Below, piece after piece: positions 17,290 through 64,000 of a stretch of 64,000 bases of DNA. Location: the NCBI GenBank assembly GCA_964016885.1, contig OZ024744.1:54374001-54438000 (forward strand), read 5' to 3'. The notes beneath the pieces were generated by a model. That model was not told the DNA's origin. It did no database searches and saw only the letters and a program-made list of their open reading frames with translations. Positions within the stretch are counted from its first letter, which is position 1; each line of letters begins with the position of its first letter. A program made the position numbers and the translations under genes. This DNA is from Eledone cirrhosa (taxonomy: Eukaryota).

Positions 17290-18435
17290 GTTTTGCGAGG
17301 TTTTTTATATGAAATCGTGTGTCGAAACAGATATTGTTATATTTGGGGAGGGTCATATTTGCGTAATATTGCCAGAATTAATAACAGAACACACTCACTG
17401 TTTGGTTGGTTTTCGCTTCTCGCTGTCTTTTATATATATATATCTGCGATCTAACTTACTCGGTCCTCAATGTTGCCATTGACTGACCGGCGGTCAAAAA
17501 TAATACAGATACAATATAGACAAACACATATATATATAGTTTACATAATTTACATAAATCTTTCGTTGCACATCTGCAACATCGTCAGTGGTGTTATATT
17601 CATTGTTCCTCCTGTTGTGTTGTATGTCTACGCCATTTTTTTTTTTTGTGTTCAGTCTGTCTATATATTTATTTATTTATTTGCTTGTTTGTTTATCTTA
17701 TTTTATTTTGTCTTCTTTGCGCATGCGTTTGCGTGTGTGTATAGTGTTATGTGTGATGTGTGACTAGTGTGTATAGTGTTGTGTCTGCTGGGTGACTAGT
17801 GTGTGTTTATGTGCTTGTGTATGTATTTATTTATCTTATTTTATTTAATTTAATTTACTTATTTATTTATACTTCTCTTAGGTCAGTGTTGTTTGTTTGG
17901 GTGTTGTTGTTGTTCCACTCATTCTTTCTGTTTAGCTTTGGTCTTCTAATTTCTATTTCACTGGCCTCTCTGATTTGCCTATCTGCTGGGTCATTCCTAT
18001 GTTTAGATATTATTCTAATTTCTATGTTATCTATGTTACCGTCATGTTGTTGTCTAGCATGTTCGTATAGTACTAACCCGTTTTTTCGTCCTTTTAGTTC
18101 CCCCCAGTGTTGGTCTATCCTTTCACCTATGCTACGAGCTGTCTCACCTATGTATGTTGTTGTCGTGTTTCTGCAAGTACCCTCTGTACATCTTATGCTA
18201 TAGACTACGTTTCTAGTTTTACAGTTTATCCGGGGGTTCACCTTACATATGATACATTTCCTATTGGTACAGTGGGTTTTCTTAAAAGGGTAGGTTTTGC
18301 TGATCAGGGATTTTATGGTGGTTCCTGGCTTTCCTACCACCTTTATTTTTAAGTGGGTCTTTCTCCAACCAAACAGTGAGTGTGTTCTGTTATTAATTCT
18401 GGCAATATTACGCAAATATGACCCTCCCCAAATAT

Positions 18436-18445
<10 letters not shown>
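17290..18445 (-). mobile_element. 5'-truncated Penelope/Poseidon-like PLE with inverted tail at its 5' end
   Basis: ORF 17867-18415 GIY-YIG; 17333-17410 is the reverse complement of 18365-18442. Confidence 0.88.
17553..17590 (-). ncRNA. Minimal hammerhead motif in PLE tail (weak stem I)
   Basis: Minus: ca CTGACGA T GTTGCA gatg TGCAAC GAAA GATTTA tg. Confidence 0.6.
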
Positions 18446-18533
<88 letters not shown>

Positions 18534-18669
18534 AGTGTAATTTTCTACACAAAACGAAGGTTATACAGAAAATTGAGGTTGGTAATGGCACATGGAATAT
18601 ATAAGAGACAGAATACTTTTTTGTGAAAAAACATAATTTTATAAGGTAAGGAAATAATAAAGGGTATAA

Positions 18670-18717
18670 AAAATGACCGGTTTCGATGGGTCTGCAAAAG
18701 CCATCTTTTCAAATGTT
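18670..18717 (-). ncRNA. Hammerhead motif with U3-A8 core covariation (3' pLTR)
   Basis: Minus: aacat TTGAAAA GATGG cttttgcagac CCATC GAAAC CG GTC atttt. Confidence 0.65.
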
Positions 18718-19079
18718 GATTAATATTAAGAAAAATTAATAATACGAAGAGTTAAAACTTGAGATTTGAAAATTCAAGTATAAAATTCATTGTGGGATTT
18801 CATAGCAGTTTTCATCTAGGTAGCAACAACAGGTTGACTGCTGTGTCCCTTTCTGGTAGTGAATGAGAAGTTATTTGGGGTGTGGGTTATTTTATAAAGG
18901 TCAGATTTAGCAATCGTCAACTGGCCAGCTGCTGGTCAGTGAGGGGGTGGAAGCAATATACATACACATATCTTCCTGTGGTGGGTAGGAGAGTGGAGCG
19001 TGATAGAAAGGGATTTAGTGCACTTACACCTATATATACACACATACCTTCACCCACACATACATACATATACATATAC

Positions 19080-19116
<37 letters not shown>

Positions 19117-19177
19117 CACACATACATACACACACACATACATATACATACACACATACACACACATATATACACAT

Positions 19178-19240
<63 letters not shown>

Positions 19241-19759: not shown

Positions 19760-22066
19760 CTATTGGGGTGATAACCCGTTTAGTTTTGGTTTAAATTTGT
19801 TAAGGAATAGATTTTCTTTGTTTATTCTTTGTTGCTGTGTGAACGAATCTGAGCACTTGTAGAAGGGGAAGATTTTAAAGTTGGGTAGTGTCATTCCTGC
19901 GCAGTTCGCAATATGGCTGCTCAAGGGGATTTTTCTTGTGTTAGCGTCCCGGATTTGTTGGCGGTGGATGGTCATTCTTTTGCGTAATGAGGTGCCCGTC
20001 TGTCCTATGTAGTTGTGTTTGCACCCACCGCAAGTTATTGCGTAAATCAAGTTCTCCGAGTTGCAGGTGAAATTGTTTTTTACTGTAAATGTTTAGCCAT
20101 CTTTTAATGTAAATGTTTGTCCTTCAGTGAGGTAGAGGCACGTTCCACAGTTTGTTCTACCACATTTGGTAACTGTAGGGTTGAGGATTGGTTTGGGTAT
20201 ATTTGGTCCAGTGAGAATGCGTTTAAGTGATTTGGGTTGTCTTTTACTTTTAAGGATCTTGTGTGTTTCAAGAATAGACTTCATTTTTACATCTTTAAGT
20301 AGGATGGGGAGGTTTTTGTGTAGGTGATCAAACATTTCGGTATTTCTGGGGTTGAAAGTGGATACATATGGCAGGGTGTTTAGTGTGGTTTTCTGTTTTG
20401 GATTGTTAAGTTGATGGGGATTTAGGTGTTTTGCCCTGTCTATTCCATTGTTGATTATTTCAAGTGGAAAGGCTCTTAAGATAAGGGTGTCTTTTAGTTC
20501 CTTTAGTCTTTGCTCCCGTTTAGGTGGATCTGATACTATGGTACATATACGTTTGGCCAAATTGTAAGGAATGTTAAGTTTTGTATGTTTTGGGTGACTT
20601 GATGTGAAAAAGAGGTATTGCTTGGAATCTGTGGGTTTATAGAATATATCTGTATCTAATTTCCCGTCTATTACAGAGATGAGAATATCCAAGAAGGCTA
20701 ATTCCTTAGGATTGGATTCCATTGTGAATTGCATGTTATTATCTATGTTGTTTATCATGTTTTTAAACGTAGTAAGTGAGTTCATGTCTTCTTGCCATAG
20801 GATAAAGCAGTCGTCTAGATATCTTTTCCAATTGGCTTTGAGGTGTGTGTGGAAAGAGTCTCCAAATAAGAGAAGAGACTGACTGTATATTTGTTGTTCA
20901 TGGAATCCCATGACTAGGTTGGCATATGTGGGTGCTACTTTCGTGCCCATTGCCGTACCTGATACTTGTCTGTATGTTGAACCATTGAATGTGAAGTAGT
21001 TATTTTGTAGGATAAAGCGGAGTCCGTCAGTGATAAAATCTGTGTTGATGCGTGTCGGTATTTCTGATGGGTGTGTGTTAAGCCAGTATTGGACTGCTGT
21101 TATTCCATAGTTGTGAGGTATGTTTGTGTAGAGGTTTATTACGTCAAAGGAGACAAGAATTGTATTTGCACTTACTGTTTTAGGGAGGTGTTTCAGCATG
21201 TCAAGGTCATCTCGTATGTAGCTCTGTATATGTTGTAGAAAGGGTTTCAGTAGGATGTCCAGAAAGTTGCTAAGTTTGTGGGTTTCACATGTAGGGCCTG
21301 CTATAATTGGCCTGAGTTTTAGGTCTTCTGGTGGTGTTAGTTCAATGTAATTGTTGGTTGAGGTGTCACATGCATCGTTTATGGGTTTACATTTGTGGAG
21401 TTTCGGTAAGCCGTAAAAAGAGCTTGTATTGCATTTGAAGTGGCTTATATAGTTAAACTCTTTTGTGGTTAAGCTGTTGCGGTATTTATTCAGTAAGGTC
21501 AAAAGGTTCCCCATTGTTTTGGTGTGTTTGTAGTTTTCTGTTTTTTCATAGTATGTGTTGTTTTCTAAAATGTTAAGTGCGAGGGTCCTATAGTAGTCCG
21601 TATTCATAATGACAACAGTACTGCCTTTATCGGCTTCTTTGATAGTTATCTCAGGGTTGTTTCTAAGTGTGAATAATTCTTCCCATTCGTGTGTAGATAG
21701 GTTTGATTTCGTGTGTTTATTTGTAATTTTTTCATAGGGAAAGTTGGTGATGTGTTCGCAGTACGTGTCCAGTGCTTTATTTCTTCCCTTTTGTGGGCAG
21801 AAATTGCTTTTATTTCTAACCAGTGATTCGTCTTCAGTGTTGGTGTCGTTGTGGAAGAATTCCGTTAGTCGCAGCTTTCGGCAGTATTCCATGATGTCAT
21901 CCTTCATTTCGAGGAAGTTTGGTTTACGTGGTGTAGGTGTAAATTTCAGGCCCTTACTTAAAATGTTGATTTGTGTGTTGGTTAGAGGTGTCTTTGAGAG
22001 GTTGATTATTTTTGGTTTCTCCTGAGGGGGGGCCATCGAGTATCCTGGTATTTCAGGCTTTTCCCT
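19760..22066 (-). CDS. PLE ORF2: reverse transcriptase + GIY-YIG endonuclease (one in-frame TAA at 20093-20095)
   Basis: LSKGLKFTPTP, ADKG, FYGLPKLHK, LRPII, SFDVINLY, GTAMGTKVAP, RYLDDCF, AFLDI, CGRTNCGTC, IYAITC..C..NYIGQTG; ORFs 20093-22036 and 19760-20050 share a frame. Confidence 0.92.
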
Positions 22067-23271
22067 AAAAAAGGAATGTAGTTTTGTGTGTGATTATATT
22101 TTGTTGGTCTGTTGCGTGTGGGTCTGTAGCTTGTTGTTTCATGAGGGTGAATGTGATGGTGGGGGTGGTATGTGTTGTGGTTGTTGATGAGCAAGGGTTC
22201 TGTTGTTGGTTCATGTGGTCTGGGTGCGTTATTTCTGTGGTACAGAGTGTTGAGGTTGGGGGGTTGTCTTTTGTTGGATTGAGGGTGATGTCTGGTGTGG
22301 TTGTGGGTAAGTTCTGTTGTGATTTCAAGTGGTCTGGGTGGATTTCTTCTGAGGAATGTGGTGTGTGTGTTGTGAGTTGGATCTATGTTATTTCGTCGTT
22401 GGTTTATGTAGGGGGCATTTCTACGGAAACCTGTGTTGTGGTGGTTGGGTGTGTTTCTTTTGGTGTAGTTGGCCGTATTTGGTTTGTGTTGGTGGGGGAT
22501 GTGCCTGTGGTTAGTGTGTGTTGGGTTTGGTGGTGTAAATGTGTATGTTGTAGTTCTTGTTATGTTCAAATGCTTTATAAAGGGGTTACCTGTTTGGTGC
22601 GTCCTTTTAAAGTCTTCTTCATATTTGAGGAACCAGTTTTCGGATTTTTCTCACCGTTTAAGGGAAATAGTTTCTGCATTCTCGCAGTCCTGTTTCCACG
22701 ATTTGATTAAATTTTGTAGGGTTGTTCCCTCGGCCTTTTTAGTGCATTCTTCCTCCATATTTTTATCAGTATCCTTATACTCTTGCTCGTTTGAGGTGGC
22801 CCTTAATTTTAGGAGTTCTATTTCCATGTTTATCCTGTTGAATGACATTTGTTCGCGGAGTTTTCTTTCTGGTTCAGGTTCGTTTGTAATATGCTTTATT
22901 TGGAATTTACGTGGTAAAACTATCGGTGTTGAGTTAATCCATTTTTGGTAAATTCCAGCTTTGTTGAGGTTTTTTATCATATTCCAGAAAGTGAATTTTC
23001 TGGTTTTTAGATGTTTTTTCCAGAGGTGTCCCATTTGGTTTTTGATATGGAGCAATGTCGTTTGTTCTGTGTTGGTATTCATAAGTTTTTCGATGGAGAT
23101 GCATACGTTTTGAACGTTTAAATAAATTTGGTTGTCAGTCGGTGTGGTGGTTTGGGGTATATCCTGTTTTTTTGTCAGAATGGTGAGTTTTCCATTTATC
23201 TCTTTTAGGATTTTCAGGATTTCCTCATTTATATTGGAGTTTGAAGTTGTGTTGTCTTGTTCCAGTGCCAT
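22006..23271 (-). CDS. PLE ORF1: helical/coiled-coil-like N-terminus and H/N/T/P-rich disordered C-terminus (one in-frame TGA at 22651-22653)
   Basis: ORFs 22651-23271 and 22006-22569 share a frame (KR*EKSENWFLKYE); ATG lies ~30 nt from the pLTR. Confidence 0.75.
22020..22072 (-). promoter_or_regulatory. Candidate -1 programmed ribosomal frameshift signal (T_TTT_TTA plus stem-loop)
   Basis: CCT TTT TTA GGG AAA AG CCTGA...TCAGG; the -1 frame runs open into ORF2. Confidence 0.65.
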
Positions 23272-23440
23272 TTTCCGGATTTGCGTAGGTTAGTATATAT
23301 GAAAAGTGTAATTTTCTACACAAAACGAAGGTTATAGAGAAAATTGAGGTTGGTAATGGCACATGGAATATATAAGAGACAGAATACTTTTTTGTGAAAA
23401 AACATAATTTTATAAGGTAAGGAAATAATAAAGGGTATAA

Positions 23441-23488
23441 AAAATGACCGGTTTCGATGGGTCTGCAAAAGCCATCTTTTCAAATGTT
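23441..23488 (-). ncRNA. Hammerhead motif with U3-A8 core (5' pLTR copy)
   Basis: Same sequence as 18670-18717. Confidence 0.65.
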
Positions 23489-23850
23489 GATTAATATTAA
23501 GAAAAATTAATAATACGAAGAGTTAAAATTTGAGATTTGAAAATTCAAGTATAAAATTCATTGTGGGATTTCATAGCAGTTTTCATCTAGGTAGCAACAA
23601 CAGGTTGACTGCTGTGTCCCTTTCTGGTAGTGAATGAGAAGTTATTTGGGGTGTGGGTTATTTTATAAAGGTCAGATTTAGCAATCGTCAACTGGCCAGC
23701 TGCTGGTCAGTGAGGGGGTGGAAGCAATATACATACACATATCTTCCTGTGGTGGGTAGGAGAGTGGAGCGAGATAGAAAGGGATTTAGTGCACTTACAC
23801 CTATATATACACACATACCTTCATCCACACATACATACATATACATATAC

Positions 23851-23921
<71 letters not shown>

Positions 23922-23989
23922 CACACATACATACACACACACATACATATACACACACACATACACACACACACATATATACACATACA

Positions 23990-24214
23990 TAACAACCCTG
24001 AGATAACTATCAAAGAAGCCGATAAAGGCAGTACTGTTGTCATTATGAATACGGACTACTATAGGACCCTCGCACTTAACATTTTAGAAAACAACACATA
24101 CTATGAAAAAACAGAAAACTACAAACACACCAAAACAATGGGGAACCTTTTGACCTTACTGAATAAATACCGCAACAGCTTAACCACAAAAGAGTTTAAC
24201 TATATAAGCCACTT
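23990..24214 (+). mobile_element. Inverted copy of an internal RT segment of the adjacent PLE
   Basis: Reverse complement of ~21438-21662 ([13 protein letters not shown]...FNYISHF). Confidence 0.92.
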
Positions 24215-25544
24215 CTATACATACATATAAAATAGAAAAAAAAACAAAAAGCTTATTAGAACTTTCCTTAAAGACTATTATAGTCTAGATATTACTTTTG
24301 AAAACACAAGTAAAGTAGTTAATTTCCTAGATATAACTTTAGACTTGGCTACGGGTATCTACCAACCTTACCATAAACCCAACCAAAACTTACACTACAT
24401 ACACTCACAATCTAATCACCCTAAATCTATCCTTAAAAACCTTGCATATAATATATCACTTAGAATTTCTAACCTTTCGTCTAACCAAGATGTATTTGAT
24501 AAAAATGCGACCTTCTATAACGAAGCTCTAGCTAGAAGTGGCCACAAAAATAGATTGGAATATATACCTTCTACCAATAACACTATAAACATACAACCTA
24601 ATATTACCAACAAACACCAATTGAAACGTACACACCTAAATGCCACTCACACTATACCCCAAAATACCAACATAAAACCAAATTTCTCTAACTCCTCTAA
24701 TATAAAGTATAGTAACTCTCAAAAAACTACTCATCATACAACTCTAATAAATGTTAATAATAAAACTCCTAATAAACAAGCTAAAACACCTAAATCAATA
24801 AATCTAACTAAAAATGTGCGTGGAGAGTTCATTAACAATAATCCTCCTAGTAAACATCAGGATGCATCCTATAAAAACAATAAACAACATAGAAACCGTA
24901 ATAGACGAGTTACTTGGTATAATGCTCCATTTAATTTACAAATTAAGGATAATATACCTAAAAAAATTTTTAATATCCTAGAGAAAAACTTCCCGCCAAA
25001 CCACAAATACCATCAAATCTTAAATAGATCAACAGTTAAATTCTCATACTCAACAACCAAAAACATAAAACAAAATATAAGTGCCTATAATGCATATAAA
25101 TGTAAAAAAATCATAAGTATACAACCAGTACATCAAACTAGCCATAATATCTCCTCAAATACAGAATTAACGAAAGGTTGTAACTGTAGAAACAAGGCAA
25201 ACTGCCCATTAAAAGGAAATTGTCTTGTTAACAACATAGTATATAAATGTAAAGTTAAAACTAAGGATTCTATTTGCTCATATATAGGAGCTACTTCTAA
25301 CAATTTTAAGGTAAGGTTTAATACCCACAAACATAGTTTTAAAAATGCCGCACTGGCTAATACAACATCTCTAGCAGAAAAAATTAATAGTTATAGAAAT
25401 AAGAATATAGAATATGATATGACCTGGAGTGTGCTCAAAAGAGCCACCCCTTATCAAAATAATAGAAATGAATGTAGATTGTGTTCCCAAGAACTATTTG
25501 AAATAATGAAATCTAAGGATATCCTATTAAATAAGCGACAGGAA

Positions 25545-26740
25545 TTAATAATATCGTGTAATCATGAACTGAGAAAAAAATTTAAATATTATAAACCTAA
25601 TTAATAATATATATTTTAGAAATTAATATATAAATTAATTTTAATGTAGTTAACCTATAATTTTAATTTAATTAAAATTCTACTACAGATGAAATTAAAA
25701 AATATCGTATAATCATAAACTGTGAAAAACATTTAAATATTATTAACCTAATTAATATATACTTTGGAAATTAATATATAGATTAATTTTAGTTTATTTA
25801 ACCTATTATTAAAATTCTTTTACAGATGAAATACAACAAAATATCGTGTAATTAAAAACGGAGAAATACTTTTTAATATTATAAACCTAATTAATATACA
25901 ATTTAGAAATTAATATATAAATTAATTTTAATTTAGTTAACCTATAATTTTAATTTAGTTAGCTTATAATTAAAATTCTAATACAGATGAAATGCAGAAT
26001 ATCGTGTAATCATAAACTGAGAAAAACTTTTAAATATATACCTAATTAATATACACTTTACAAATTAATATATAGATTAATTTTAATTTAGTTAACCTAT
26101 AATTAAAATTCTACTATAGATAAAATACAAAATGTTGCTTTAGTTATTATAAACCTAATTAACATATACTATAGAAATTAATATATAATTTTTAATTTAG
26201 TTAACCTATAATTAATAATCTACTACCGATGAAATACTTAATTTGGCTTTCCCTATTACAAAATTAATTTCCTAAAATTGATACCATCATGTAAATATAT
26301 GTAATTATTTTTAATTTAGTTATGCTATAATTAATACTCTACTACTGTTTAACTTCAAAATTCCGCTTTAAATATTATAAACCTAATTAGTATACACCTT
26401 AGAAATTAATATATTAACTATTTTTATTTTGGTTAACCTATAATTAATATTCTACTTATATTAAAATACATAATTTTTCCCTCTTACAAAATTCATTTCC
26501 TAAAATTGATACCATCATGTAAATATTTGTAATTAATTTTAATTTAGTTATGCTATAATTAATACTCTACTACTGTTTAACTTCAAAATTCCGCTTTAAA
26601 TATTATAAACCTAATTAGTATACACCTTAGAAATTAATAATTAATATTCTACATATATTAAAATACATAATTTAGCCTTCCTTCTTACAAATACCATTTC
26701 CTAAAACTGATACCACTATGTAAACACATATAATGATTTA
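25545..26740. repeat. AT-rich degenerate tandem repeats (~140-190 bp) starting in the last codons of the Naiad-like ORF
   Basis: Recurring atcgtgtaatcataaactgagaaaaa...aaacctaattaat...ttaacctataatt. Confidence 0.85.
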
Positions 26741-39124: not shown

Positions 39125-39135
39125 ATATATATATA

Positions 39136-41909
39136 TGAGCTGATAGAGTACTGTCTAAGGATTTACAGAAACCCATGAAGCTAGATTTAACACCTTTCTA
39201 GTGGGTCCGGGTATGATTTTACATTCATTTAAATTATTGACGTATTGTTTTATTGATATTTTTTATCTGTTTGGCCCGAATCTTCCTTTATCGATTTTAA
39301 ATCGTATGGTTGATTGTAGACTTGTTCTATATGTGACGGTATTTTAACGATAGTTATAGCTCTGATTCATCTGAATTATTGAGCCCTCTGCCGCTCATAT
39401 CGGATTTCGTTTTTCGTTAACTCGTGCGCCGATTTTTCGATACTCGATCTTTCTAATATATTTAGCTCTGGACATAGCTATCCACCAGTTAATTTTATTG
39501 CTCATATTTTGTCGATTCTATTGAGTGATGAATAGCTTTTGTTTTATTTTAACATGTCTATTGAGCACTCTAATTCGATATGTGTATTTCCACATTCACT
39601 CGAATTATTTTCGCGGATATAGGGGTCATCTCCCTTGTCTAATGCCATGTGCGTTTTTCACCGCTAGTTGACTCCTTTGCCGCCAGGATATAACTCGTTG
39701 ACAACGTAAACTCCATTCCACTTATTCTAGTAGGCTTTTATATTTATATGTGAGCTGATAGAGTACTGTCTAAGGATTTACAGAAACCCATGAAGCTAGA
39801 TTTAACACCTTTCTAGTGGGTCCGGGTATGATTTTACATTCATTTAAATTATTGACGTATTGTTTTATTGATATTTTTTATCTGTTTGGCCCGAATCTTC
39901 CTTTATCGATTTTAAATCGTATGGTTGATTGTAGACTTGTTCTATATGTGACGGTATTTTAACGATAGTTATAGCTCTGATTCATCTGAATTATTGAGCC
40001 CTCTGCCGCTCATATCGGATTTCGTTTTTCGTTAACTCGTGCGCCGATTTTTCGATACTCGATCTTTCTAATATATTTAGCTCTGGACATAGCTATCCAC
40101 CAGTTAATTTTATTGCTCATATTTTGTCGATTCTATTGAGTGATGAATAGCTTTTGTTTTATTTTAACATGTCTATTGAGCACTCTAATTCGATATGTGT
40201 ATTTCCACATTCACTCGAATTATTTTCGCGGATATAGGGGTCATCTCCCTTGTCTAATGCCATGTGCGTTTTTCACCGCTAGTTGACTCCTTTGCCGCCA
40301 GGATATAACTCGTTGACAACGTAAACTCCATTCCACTTATTCTAGTAGGCTTTTATATTTATATGTGAGCTGATAGAGTACTGTCTAAGGATTTACAGAA
40401 ACCCATGAAGCTAGATTTAACACCTTTCTAGTGGGTCCGGGTATGATTTTACATTCATTTAAATTATTGACGTATTGTTTTATTGATATTTTTTATCTGT
40501 TTGGCCCGAATCTTCCTTTATCGATTTTAAATCGTATGGTTGATTGTAGACTTGTTCTATATGTGACGGTATTTTAACGATAGTTATAGCTCTGATTCAT
40601 CTGAATTATTGAGCCCTCTGCCGCTCATATCGGATTTCGTTTTTCGTTAACTCGTGCGCCGATTTTTCGATACTCGATCTTTCTAATATATTTAGCTCTG
40701 GACATAGCTATCCACCAGTTAATTTTATTGCTCATATTTTGTCGATTCTATTGAGTGATGAATAGCTTTTGTTTTATTTTAACATGTCTATTGAGCACTC
40801 TAATTCGATATGTGTATTTCCACATTCACTCGAATTATTTTCGCGGATATAGGGGTCATCTCCCTTGTCTAATGCCATGTGCGTTTTTCACCGCTAGTTG
40901 ACTCCTTTGCCGCCAGGATACAACTCGTTGACAACGTAAACTCCATTCCACTTATTCTAGTAGGCTTTTATATTTATATGTGAGCTGATAGAGTACTGTC
41001 TAAGGATTTACAGAAACCCATGAAGCTAGATTTAACACCTTTCTAGTGGGTCCGGGTATGATTTTACATTCATTTAAATTATTGACGTATTGTTTTATTG
41101 ATATTTTTTATCTGTTTGGCCCGAATCTTCCTTTATCGATTTTAAATCGTATGGTTGATTGTAGACTTGTTCTATATGTGACGGTATTTTAACGATAGTT
41201 ATAGCTCTGATTCATCTGAATTATTGAGCCCTCTGCCGCTCATATCGGATTTCGTTTTTCGTTAACTCGTGCGCCGATTTTTCGATACTCGATCTTTCTA
41301 ATATATTTAGCTCTGGACATAGCTATCCACCAGTTAATTTTATTGCTCATATTTTGTCGATTCTATTGAGTGATGAATAGCTTTTGTTTTATTTTAACAT
41401 GTCTATTGAGCACTCTAATTCGATATGTGTATTTCCACATTCACTCGAATTATTTTCGCGGATATAGGGGTCATCTCCCTTGTCTAATGCCATGTGCGTT
41501 TTTCACCGCTAGTTGACTCCTTTGCCGCCAGGATAAAACTCGTTGACAACGTAAACTCCATTCCACTTATTCTAGTAGGCTTTTATATTTATATGTGAGC
41601 TGATAGAGTACTGTCTAAGGATTTACAGAAACCCATGAAGCTAGATTTAACACCTTTCTAGTGGGTCCGGGTATGATTTTACATTCATTTAAATTATTGA
41701 CGTATTGTTTTATTGATATTTTTTATCTGTTTGGCCCGAATCTTCCTTTATCGATTTTAAATCGTATGGTTGATTGTAGACTTGTTCTATATGTGACGGT
41801 ATTTTAACGATAGTTATAGCTCTGATTCATCTGAATTATTGAGCCCTCTGCCGCTCATATCGGATTTCGTTTTTCGTTAACTCGTGCGCCGATTTTTCGA
41901 TACTCGATC

Positions 41910-61395: not shown

Positions 61396-62424
61396 ATCTA
61401 TAGAAGTGTGAGAAGCTCAGAGGCAGAAATAACTGTAAAACCGCCAGTTGTTATCATAGCATAGAAATTTGGGTAAAATACCCCAAGGATGGAAAAAAGT
61501 GGTCAGTTGCAGCCAATGAACTCAAAACCATCTAGGAATGGCAGCAAGTGGCTGTGAGAGCAGAAGGAAAAGGTAGGAGGGAGAGAGAGAAAAGCAGACA
61601 GATATAGAAATAGAAAATGCATTGTTACCTCATCAGTTTCCAGCTATCTGAACAGTATTGTGTGGTATTGGAAGTACCATTCATTTTACAATAGTTTGCC
61701 CAGCAGAACATAAATATATCAGCTTAAAACCTTTAAAACTCCCACAGTGAGACTAATGTATGATTATTGTACATAAATATATTGTATATGTTTTCATATA
61801 CACCTCTAATATCTGGGGAGAGGAATAATTGATCCCAGTACTAGACTTCTACTTTATTTGTGAACCTTGAAAATACAAAAAAGTCAAGTTGATGTCCGTG
61901 GTATCTGAACACATATCCAACATTTTAATGACTGTCAATTCACCTCCTTAAGACTAATGAGATAAGCAAGGTCAAAATTTAATTTTGAAATGAGAGGCAC
62001 TCAGCTCAAATGGAAAGTATTTCAAATTCCATGAAGAGGAATTTTAACAAAGGAAGGACTTATCAAAAAAATGTTAGAGAGGGAATTGAAACTTGAGAAG
62101 AATAATTTACAAAAGAAGAAGAAAAAGACATTCTAAACTGTGATAACTGTAATAATGGTTGGTCACTATAAATTAATAGTTGAGCAGGTGACGAACACAT
62201 AAAGATAGATAGAACAAAAATGGGACAGAAGCTAGAAGTGTAAACACCTGGTTGACTTTAGCAAAACAGGTACAAGTTAAAATTTGAAATGGAGTCATCT
62301 CAACAATATATTAATGGTCAACCACTATACAGTTAAGAAAATTGGATAAAGTACTACTGGAGATAGAATAAAGTAGATAAAGGTGCCTTCAGCCCTTCAT
62401 ATATTGCAGGCACTTCTCTGCAGA

Positions 62425-64000
62425 GTGCAGTGAACTATATCACACTGTGGTACCTACTTACAAATAGGTGGACTGTTGACAGTGGAGTATCTTGGTTATA
62501 GACACAGTACAGTGAACTATACCACACTGTGGTACCTACTTACAGCTAGGTGGAATGTTGATAGTTAAGTATCTTGGTTATAGACACAGTACAGTGAACT
62601 ATACCACACTGTGGTACCTACTTACAGCTAGGTGGACTGTTGACAGTTAAGTGTCTTGGTTATAGAGACAATAGGGTGAACTATACCACACTGTGGTACC
62701 TACTGACAGCTAGGTGGACTGGACTGTTGACAGTTAAGTCTTGGTTATAGACAGAGTACAGTGAACTATACCACACTGTGGTACCTACTTACAACTAGGT
62801 GGACTGTTGGCAGTTAAGTGTCTTGGTTATAGACACAGTAGAGTGAACTATACCACACTGTGGTACCTACTTACAACTAGGTGTACTGTTGACAGTTAAG
62901 TGTCTAGGTTATAGACACAGTACAGTGAACTATACCACACTGTGGTACATACTTACAGCTAGGTGGACTGTTGACAGTTAAGTGTCTTGGTTATAGAGAT
63001 AGTACAGTGAACTATACCACACTGTGGTACCTACTTACAGCTAGGTGGACTGTTGACAGTTAAGTGTCTTGGTTATAGAGACAATACAGTGAACTATACC
63101 ACACTGTGGTACCTACTTACAGCTAGGTGGACTGGACTGATGACAGTTAAGTCTCTTGGATATAGATACAGTACAGTGAACTATACCACACTGTGGTACC
63201 TACTTACAGCTAGGTGGACTGTTGACAGTTAAGTGTCTTAGTTATAGACACAGTACAATGAACTATACCACAATGTGGTACCTACTTAGAGCTGGGTAGA
63301 CTGTTGACAGTTAAGTGTCTTGGTTATAGACACAGTACAGTGAACTATACCACACTCTGGTACCTACTTACAACTAGGTGGACTGTTTACAGTGGAGTGT
63401 CTTGGTTATAGACACAGTACAGTGAACTAAACCACACTATGGTACCTACTTACAGCTAGGTGGACAGTTGACAGTTAAGTGTCTTGGTTATAGACACAGT
63501 ACAGTGAACTATACCACACTGTGGTACCTACTTACAGCTAGGTGAACTGTTGACAGTTAAGTGTCTTGGTTATAGACAGAGTACAGTGAACTATACCACA
63601 CTGTGGTACCTACTTACAGCTAGGTGAACTGTTGACAGTTAAGTGTCTTGGTTATAGACACAGTACAGTGTTCTATAGCTCATTGTGGTACCTACTTACA
63701 GCTAGGTGGACTGTTGACAGTTAAGTGTCTTGGTTATAGACACAGTACAGTGAAGTATACAACACTGTGGTACCTACTTACAGCTAGGTGGACTGTTGAC
63801 AATTAAGTGTCTTGGTTATAGACACAGTACAGTGAACTATACTACACTGTGCTACCTACTTACAGCTAGGTGGGCTGGACTGTTGACAGTTAAATCCTGG
63901 TTATAGACACAGCACAGTGAACTATACCACACTGTGGTACCTACTTACAGCTAGGTGGACTTGACTGTTGACATTTAAGTCTTGGTTATAGACACAGTAT
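62425..64000. repeat. 82-bp minisatellite, ~19 copies, runs off the window
   Basis: Unit acagtacagtgaactataccacactgtggtacctacttacagctaggtggactgttgacagttaagtgtcttggttatagac. Confidence 0.97.

Follow-up and report, generated by a model that had tools for sequence, protein, structure and literature searches.

The window, a stretch of 64,000 nucleotides (nt) from Eledone cirrhosa whose own numbering is used for all positions, contains on its minus strand a Penelope-like element (PLE) of Neptune type, a decayed copy from a young family. This retrotransposon carries a GIY-YIG endonuclease (EN+) and possesses a separate helical open reading frame, ORF1, ahead of ORF2, which encodes the reverse transcriptase and endonuclease (RT-EN). 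The identity as a GIY-YIG PLE, already put forward in the original prediction, is borne out by Pfam, with RVT_1 and GIY-YIG both above their cut-offs; the RT shows the GxKF and DKG motifs and the C-terminal endonuclease the CCHH motif. The RT-EN frame opens at 22093, in the -1 frame relative to ORF1, and the two overlap by 88 nt including the stop, in agreement with the ~85 nt expected. Inside the overlap, read from 22072 to 22066, the slippery heptamer T_TTT_TTA stands in the phase that had been predicted, and it is the sole TTTTTTA within ORF1. As seen from its conservation among relatives, a programmed -1 frameshift at this site is very likely to be the way in which RT-EN would be translated.

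The window family, referred to as A, is both young and abundant, as most copies are ~99% identical and a first look gave 567 candidates dispersed over many contigs. Of 20 long copies, 10 have retained both ORF1 and ORF2 unbroken. Regarding the copy in the window itself, the layout first described is correct, but two private TGA stops had been overlooked (Table 1). Selenocysteine at both TGAs, as in some Naiads, was ruled out because they are private to this copy.

Table 1. Features of the PLE in the window.
Feature	Position	Strand	Remarks
ORF1	22006..23271	-	ATG 23271 to TAA 22006, 421 codons; broken in window copy
ORF1 helical domain, residues 9-224	22600..23247	-	AlphaFold2 model, five long helices
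Private TGA in ORF1 of window copy	22651..22653	-	TGG in 26/28 aligned copies
Slippery heptamer T_TTT_TTA	22066..22072	-	X_XXY_YYZ phase; intact in 59/59 distinct family copies (biased sample, picked by similarity or long frames)
Codon +11 after heptamer	22033..22035	-	TGG (DTRW) in window family; stop codon in many relatives
C7 run	22026..22032	-	unstable; length differs among copies, scrambling or fusing frames
ORF2 (RT-EN)	19760..22093	-	777 codons in intact copies; -1 frame relative to ORF1
RVT_1	~20750-21319	-	Pfam
CX4CxxC linker motif	20138..20164	-	24 residues ahead of next conserved Cys
Private TGA between RT and EN of window copy	20093..20095	-	many copies with 777-aa open frame
GIY-YIG	~19778-20050	-	Pfam
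Upstream pseudo-LTR (long terminal repeat), including microsatellite	23294..23991	-	direct repeat of 18523-19218; self-BLAST 95.6% over 698 nt
Downstream pseudo-LTR	18523..19218	-	self-BLAST
Hammerhead-ribozyme-like motif, U3-A8 core, palindromic helix III	23446..23483	-	by eye, against the variant in the accessible text of PMC4209133

Sister families of the same genome preserve this arrangement. Families B and C were found with a database ORF1 homologue as query, and a pattern for the RT start that is blind to the heptamer (1652 matches versus 1 in the control) brought in families C', D and E. A -1 overlap containing CAT_TTT_TTA_GAC was seen in family B (19 of 20 copies) and in family C (9 of 10), and undamaged copies of A', C', D and E have the heptamer in phase, some copies being truncated or mutated there. 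Families A, B and C share 56-58% identity in the RT and 38-44% in ORF1; their synonymous differences are saturated (pS 0.67-0.78) with pN of 0.27-0.30, and both ORFs are under purifying selection, as judged from the sequence comparison. Family C' brackets the heptamer site from both sides, its -1 frame being open from just one codon ahead of the heptamer and its ORF1 ending 10 codons past it. In addition, the 77-nt spacing recurs in sister family A', where there is no C-run. The possibility, stated along with the original prediction, that the offset is a private indel thus largely fails, since offset and heptamer are both kept in the sister families.

Beyond this genome, a metagenome scan based on the RT gave 80 loci, 69 of them with an RT start and sufficient upstream DNA. 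A T6 run stands in the shift phase in 24 of these 69 and in another phase in 1. Where ORF1 is matched (21 loci), the run is in the shift phase in 17, in another phase in 1 and missing in 3, none being fused, and among the 48 loci with no ORF1 match it is in phase in 7 and missing in 41. The form of the heptamer across relatives is U_UUU_UUA or U_UUU_UUG. In the RT tree, built from the 61 of 85 sequences covering at least 200 profile columns, the 25 elements bearing the heptamer or a variant, together with 6 unlabelled ones, make up one side of a branch with 100/98 support, while relatives with long frames open upstream of the RT lack the heptamer and fall on the opposite side; the Neptune-type linker is present on both sides. 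Searches for fused long ORF1-RT forms found none, which is weak evidence.

The imprint of the heptamer can also be followed in proteins, using the 79 long ORF1 homologues, of at least 330 amino acids (aa). The dipeptide FL occurs in the last 50 aa of 67 of them, compared to a mean of 7.5 and a maximum of 16 in 2000 shuffles, and to 4 and 5 in control windows. Moreover, the residue before FL is never K, E, Q, M or W, whose codons are unable to end in T (0 of 67, versus 20% expected).

The position of the ORF1 stop is likewise constrained. It lies exactly 10 codons past FL in 25 of the 67 proteins and never closer, and at 10 codons in 10 of 26 DNA sites (mean 1.0, maximum 6 in a null where the -1-frame codons are shuffled), with a closer stop in 2 of the 26 compared to 14 expected. 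The 10-residue tails of the 25 proteins are only 9.5% identical, compared to a median of 32% for the cores, and the stop distance is fixed to the heptamer rather than to the RT start, which is 45-84 nt away in these cases. With UUA placed in the A-site, the distance to the stop amounts to 11 codons. In mammalian disomes (PMC7397865), measured from the 5' end, the leading A-site is at 45 or 48 nt and the trailing one at 15, corresponding to A-sites 10 or 11 codons apart, so that the two states would lie on either side of the step in which the ribosome translocates off the heptamer. In E. coli reporters (PMC6815119), a ribosome stalled at a stop promoted -1 slips in the trailing ribosome, with a peak at 9 codons. 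Since the 10-codon stop matches the spacing of collided ribosomes, the terminating ribosome may be the stimulator.

The sequence of events can then be pictured as follows. Most ribosomes would complete ORF1, and a minority would slip -1 at U_UUU_UUR, giving a minor ORF1-RT-EN fusion; a ribosome terminating one ribosome length ahead would queue the next one on the heptamer and so trigger the slip. The whole of this, that is, a conserved U_UUU_UUA overlap with a likely -1 slip, a possible queue as trigger and no hairpin, is a reading held with good confidence, a little less firmly than the frameshift itself. For the families with a stop at +11, it is an open contest, leaning slightly to the negative, whether the terminating ribosome stacks the next one on the heptamer. 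The wider proposal of an old and widespread EN+ PLE branch with a natural, collision-driven -1 frameshift and no RNA structure is also tentative, and somewhat more so. The window family has TGG at +11 and its stop at a distance of 19 codons, so that either pausing at DTRW-PP or a queue of two ribosomes would be needed instead; both are conjectures, and rather doubtful ones. If the collision model is true, RT output scales with the ribosome load on ORF1, and this would be a eukaryotic programmed frameshift stimulated by another ribosome.

Around this site, synonymous changes preserve the ORF1-frame peptide DTRW (codons +8 to +11) in families A, A', B and E. It was also observed that DTRW or a D-x-x-W variant (L131, L171 and L203; P0004, P0005 and P0010) persists while the -1 frame changes, its Trp occupying the place of the stop codon of relatives. 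The stop distances other than 10 look grouped near 20-23 and 30-32 codons, which is about two and three ribosome lengths.

Several observations weigh against the reading as a whole. Regarding the collision, the stop is elsewhere than +11 in the window family and in 42 of the 67 proteins, two DNA sites have it nearer than 10 codons, and the proteins with the +11 stop group together on the tree, with 8 changes of state and a single clade holding 19 of the 25, and thus they do not amount to 25 independent events. Strong hairpins, with z below -2, are found at 4 of 29 sites. Among the ORF1-bearing metagenome loci, L219, L258 and L288 carry T_TTT_C and L225 has no heptamer, and in A, A' and E the RT motifs are preceded by an in-frame ATG. 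Furthermore, the C-run, 33 nt downstream of the heptamer, scrambles the frame in many copies: a pattern spanning it gave 181 exact matches, and the first 100 listed, classified by length, comprise 48 with the length seen in the window, 14 others in -1, 17 fused and 21 in +1, so that the frame is scrambled in 38, the fused ones among them. Copies with a single ORF of 1176 aa (L081 and L082) also exist.

Variant sites deserve mention on their own. In L217, L219, L258 and L288 and in P0058 and P0065, T_TTT_C.. is situated 9-11 codons before the stop, in most cases with a DHNW peptide, and in L217 an additional, complete heptamer lies 12 codons upstream of it; the T_TTT_C variants may reflect single-tRNA slippage or decay. 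A separate PLE branch (L271:569-4125 and L272:819-4321) has a different ORF1 of 551-563 aa with no match to the ORF1 profile, ending in a stretch that resembles an SGNH esterase by eye, with Pfam below the cut-off. There, T_TTT_TTA is in phase, the stop follows two codons later and the RT frame ends before any endonuclease. As for the C-run, roughly half of the copies, belonging to several haplotypes, have it expanded, up to ~28 nt, which may be due to slippage in vivo or to assembly error.

Downstream RNA structure is the norm for eukaryotic -1 sites, and the strongest competitor, a live possibility though a less probable one than the ribosome queue, is that a hairpin, a pseudoknot or a bound protein drives the shift, with the +11 stop reflecting that structure or a needed Leu, Ile or Val. 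Every +11 stop does read L, I or V in the -1 frame, and strong stems are predicted in L261, L272 and L282 (z -2.1 to -4.0). The legend of Fig. 1 in PMC8557442 gives a frameshift with pseudoknot for PLE ORF1s, and in SARS-CoV-2 a nearby 0-frame stop helps shifting via pseudoknot refolding, according to the accessible text of PMC8168617. However, the stem-loop first proposed as stimulator in the window does not exceed shuffled sequences in stability (four folding windows, z +0.80, -0.55, +0.44 and -0.30), and no structure is conserved across relatives; the hairpin was rejected as stimulator for these two reasons. The folding z averages -0.34 over 29 sites, families C and C' show almost no predicted pairing, and a crude pseudoknot scan, with one row misplaced, found 9 of 27 sites compared to 9.6 in shuffled sequences. 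Moreover, selection for a hydrophobic residue predicts that TY- codons are common at +11, whereas the codons starting with T seen there are 25 stops, 2 W, 4 Y and 1 F. The HIV-type signal originally proposed thus survives in its heptamer, in the looser form U_UUU_UUA/G, and in the -1 offset, both conserved among copies and homologues, but not in its hairpin.

The remaining alternatives dispense with frameshifting. If TTTTTTAG were a 3' splice acceptor, RT-EN would come from spliced RNA and ORF1 from unspliced RNA; PLEs do keep spliceosomal introns (legend of Fig. 1 in PMC8557442), AG ends the run in 19 of 26 DNA sites, and family D has another AG of the same phase 7 nt on. Yet 7 of the 26 sites lack the AG, namely the TTTTTTG variants and family D, and the residue after FL does not correspond to a codon starting with G in 25 of the 67 proteins, which speaks against an acceptor. 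The sole phase-2 GT aligned in A, B and C is, by inspection, a weak GTTC that creates TGA in B and C, and a splice site has no need of the fixed T_TTT_TTR phase, leaving this explanation very improbable. Of 19 joints in four contig sets, none of the 15 listed has intron-type ends at the heptamer, and one contig of depth 4.9 has an extra base in the T run; these sets, from one study and of unrecorded kind, have a depth falling toward the 5' end as in genomic DNA and are silent on expression. ORF2 reinitiation is known in other retrotransposons, and a separate start of ORF2, at an internal ATG or by reinitiation past the ORF1 stop, would make the overlap incidental. The ATG at 22036 is upstream of the conserved RT start and a Met is at the same place in A' and E, but this start, the other route considered in the original prediction, has no counterpart ahead of the motifs in B, C and C'. 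In B and C the first Met of ORF2 comes at residues 163 and 70, respectively, past the conserved GLKF, which means that internal initiation is not a general route; several metagenome loci also have it beyond GxKF (residues 142, 159 and 175 in L215, L226 and L234). In addition, the ATG overlaps the ORF1-frame CGA-TGG of DTRW, which is kept in B with GTG, and the conserved heptamer would be left unexplained, so that a separate start is as improbable as splicing. Least credible of all is that the working element is one continuous ORF and the offset a mutation: the 1176-aa copies and the 17 fused copies among the 100 listed favour it, but the expanded C-runs are spread almost evenly over the phases (14/17/21), the fused copies are scattered on haplotypes shared with -1 copies, those with the fewest private changes are mostly of the -1 type (in the biased sample of 59), A' has its spacing with no C-run, and fusion is absent from the 21 metagenome loci with ORF1. 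Considering that neither the upstream ATG of ORF2 nor the splice-acceptor AG is conserved, the programmed -1 frameshift is the likely explanation.

The ORF1 protein agrees with the predicted ~420 codons, helical region and disordered tail, having 421 codons, five modelled helices and, after the helical domain, a disordered tail that is basic and rich in T, N, P and H. The AlphaFold2 model, from a 116-sequence alignment of the N-terminal 242 residues, has a pLDDT of 90.9 and a pTM of 0.75. No Foldseek match was found at E<=0.001, and the best VIA result (Z 9.2, root-mean-square deviation 6.4 over 124 residues) is to generic helical bundles, an outcome that rules out no known fold. ORF1 belongs to no Pfam family, the ESM Atlas search gave no usable match, and a CCHC knuckle is absent from all 79 long homologues, 75 of which have the basic tail. 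A phmmer search with the ORF1 core retrieved 525 homologous clusters at 50% identity, the best 150 of which are all of 546 aa or less, and among 30 clusters looked up one homologue is a protein of the pearl oyster Pinctada imbricata; scans of viral and prokaryote genomes found no relatives. The label gag-pol-like is thus suitable for the layout only, no significant Foldseek match and no knuckle having been found. From its layout and charge, ORF1 is somewhat more probably than not made in excess as an RNA-binding or particle protein. Of the lineage originally proposed, an EN+ PLE with a structural ORF1 and ratio-controlled RT, the lineage and the -1 site are supported, and the structural role and the RT ratio remain presumptive.

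Compared with known systems, the element is closest to the Neptune EN+ PLEs, as seen in the consulted parts of PMC8557442 and PMC3846280: they share the GxKF/DKG RT, the C-terminal GIY-YIG with CCHH, a CX2-5CxxC linker with a spacing of 23-28 residues, pseudo-LTRs with a hammerhead-like motif and the microsatellite context. The long Cys spacing characteristic of Neptune, which is short in Nematis, was found here, as judged by eye against the Fig. S2 rows of PMC8557442; the placement rests on this linker, the RT trees containing no named Neptune references. However, Neptune elements are described as single-ORF, as are canonical EN+ PLEs in general in the accessible text of PMC8557442, whereas here a separate ORF1 is in the -1 relation to RT-EN; families A-E and 17 of the 21 metagenome ORF1 loci have two ORFs in -1 overlap. 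A killifish Neptune, repeat.CL27, compared by description only (PMC12602865), also has an unassigned ORF1 ahead of RT-EN, but of 420 nt and non-overlapping, and the word frameshift is absent from the main text of that article. The Fig. 1 legend of PMC8557442 further states that ORF1 may be frameshift-separated with a pseudoknot, possibly in Neptune as well. Our elements resemble those in layout, with an upstream helical ORF1 split from the RT by a frameshift, and the pseudoknot of the legend is not evident here. The frameshift-separated coiled-coil ORF1 meant there is presumably that of Athena/Terminon, which are telomeric and have no endonuclease, unlike the dispersed, GIY-YIG-bearing copies described here. 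Naiad and Chlamys have the endonuclease N-terminal, whereas here it is C-terminal.

HIV-1 gag-pol uses U_UUU_UUA plus a stem-loop, with the polymerase in the -1 frame. The heptamer, the upstream ORF and the polymerase frame are common to both; here, however, no stable stem-loop is located 5-9 nt downstream, U_UUU_UUG is tolerated and ORF1 has no capsid-fold match or zinc knuckle. The E. coli reporters (PMC6815119, accessible text) share a heptamer one ribosome length before a stop and the lack of an RNA stimulator, but they are artificial and have a 9-codon optimum, whereas here an animal element found in nature is concerned, and its A-site-to-A-site distance of 11 codons is deduced from conservation only.

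The literature searched, with figures, Repbase/Dfam and supplements outside its scope, revealed no programmed frameshift in EN+ PLEs and no natural stop-spaced stimulator, and in the available portions of PMC6431247, PMC5408684, PMC6515669, PMC5718144, PMC8915115 and PMC7544508 the two-ORF -1 layout is not described. The recoding mechanism is possibly new. The single-ORF picture of EN+ PLEs is revised across a branch that numbers at least 525 ORF1 clusters, and a large unannotated protein family, missed by Pfam, is named. The branch also offers many natural and short -1 sites, seemingly devoid of RNA structure, for which geometry gives a precise expectation of the stop position, which bears on whether eukaryotic frameshifting uses ribosome collisions by design.

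Regarding the flanks of the element, both pseudo-LTRs carry the hammerhead-like motif, the second copy being at 18675-18712. Its stem II differs in families B and C yet still pairs by eye, and Rfam gave no hammerhead match for the motif. An inverted 235-nt piece of the RT region of the element itself lies at 23981-24215, just upstream of the 5' pseudo-LTR. A fragment of another PLE family with a GIY-YIG-like end is found at 24231-25604 (+), and its Cys linker, different from that of the window element, is presumably Hydra-like; a further such fragment, from a second PLE family, at 17867-18544 (-), has a short Nematis-like spacing by eye. Elsewhere in the window there are a pair of 592-nt inverted repeats (12447-13038/15498-16089), a tandem run of five 615-bp units at 99% (39125-41884) and an 82-bp tandem array (62325-63999).

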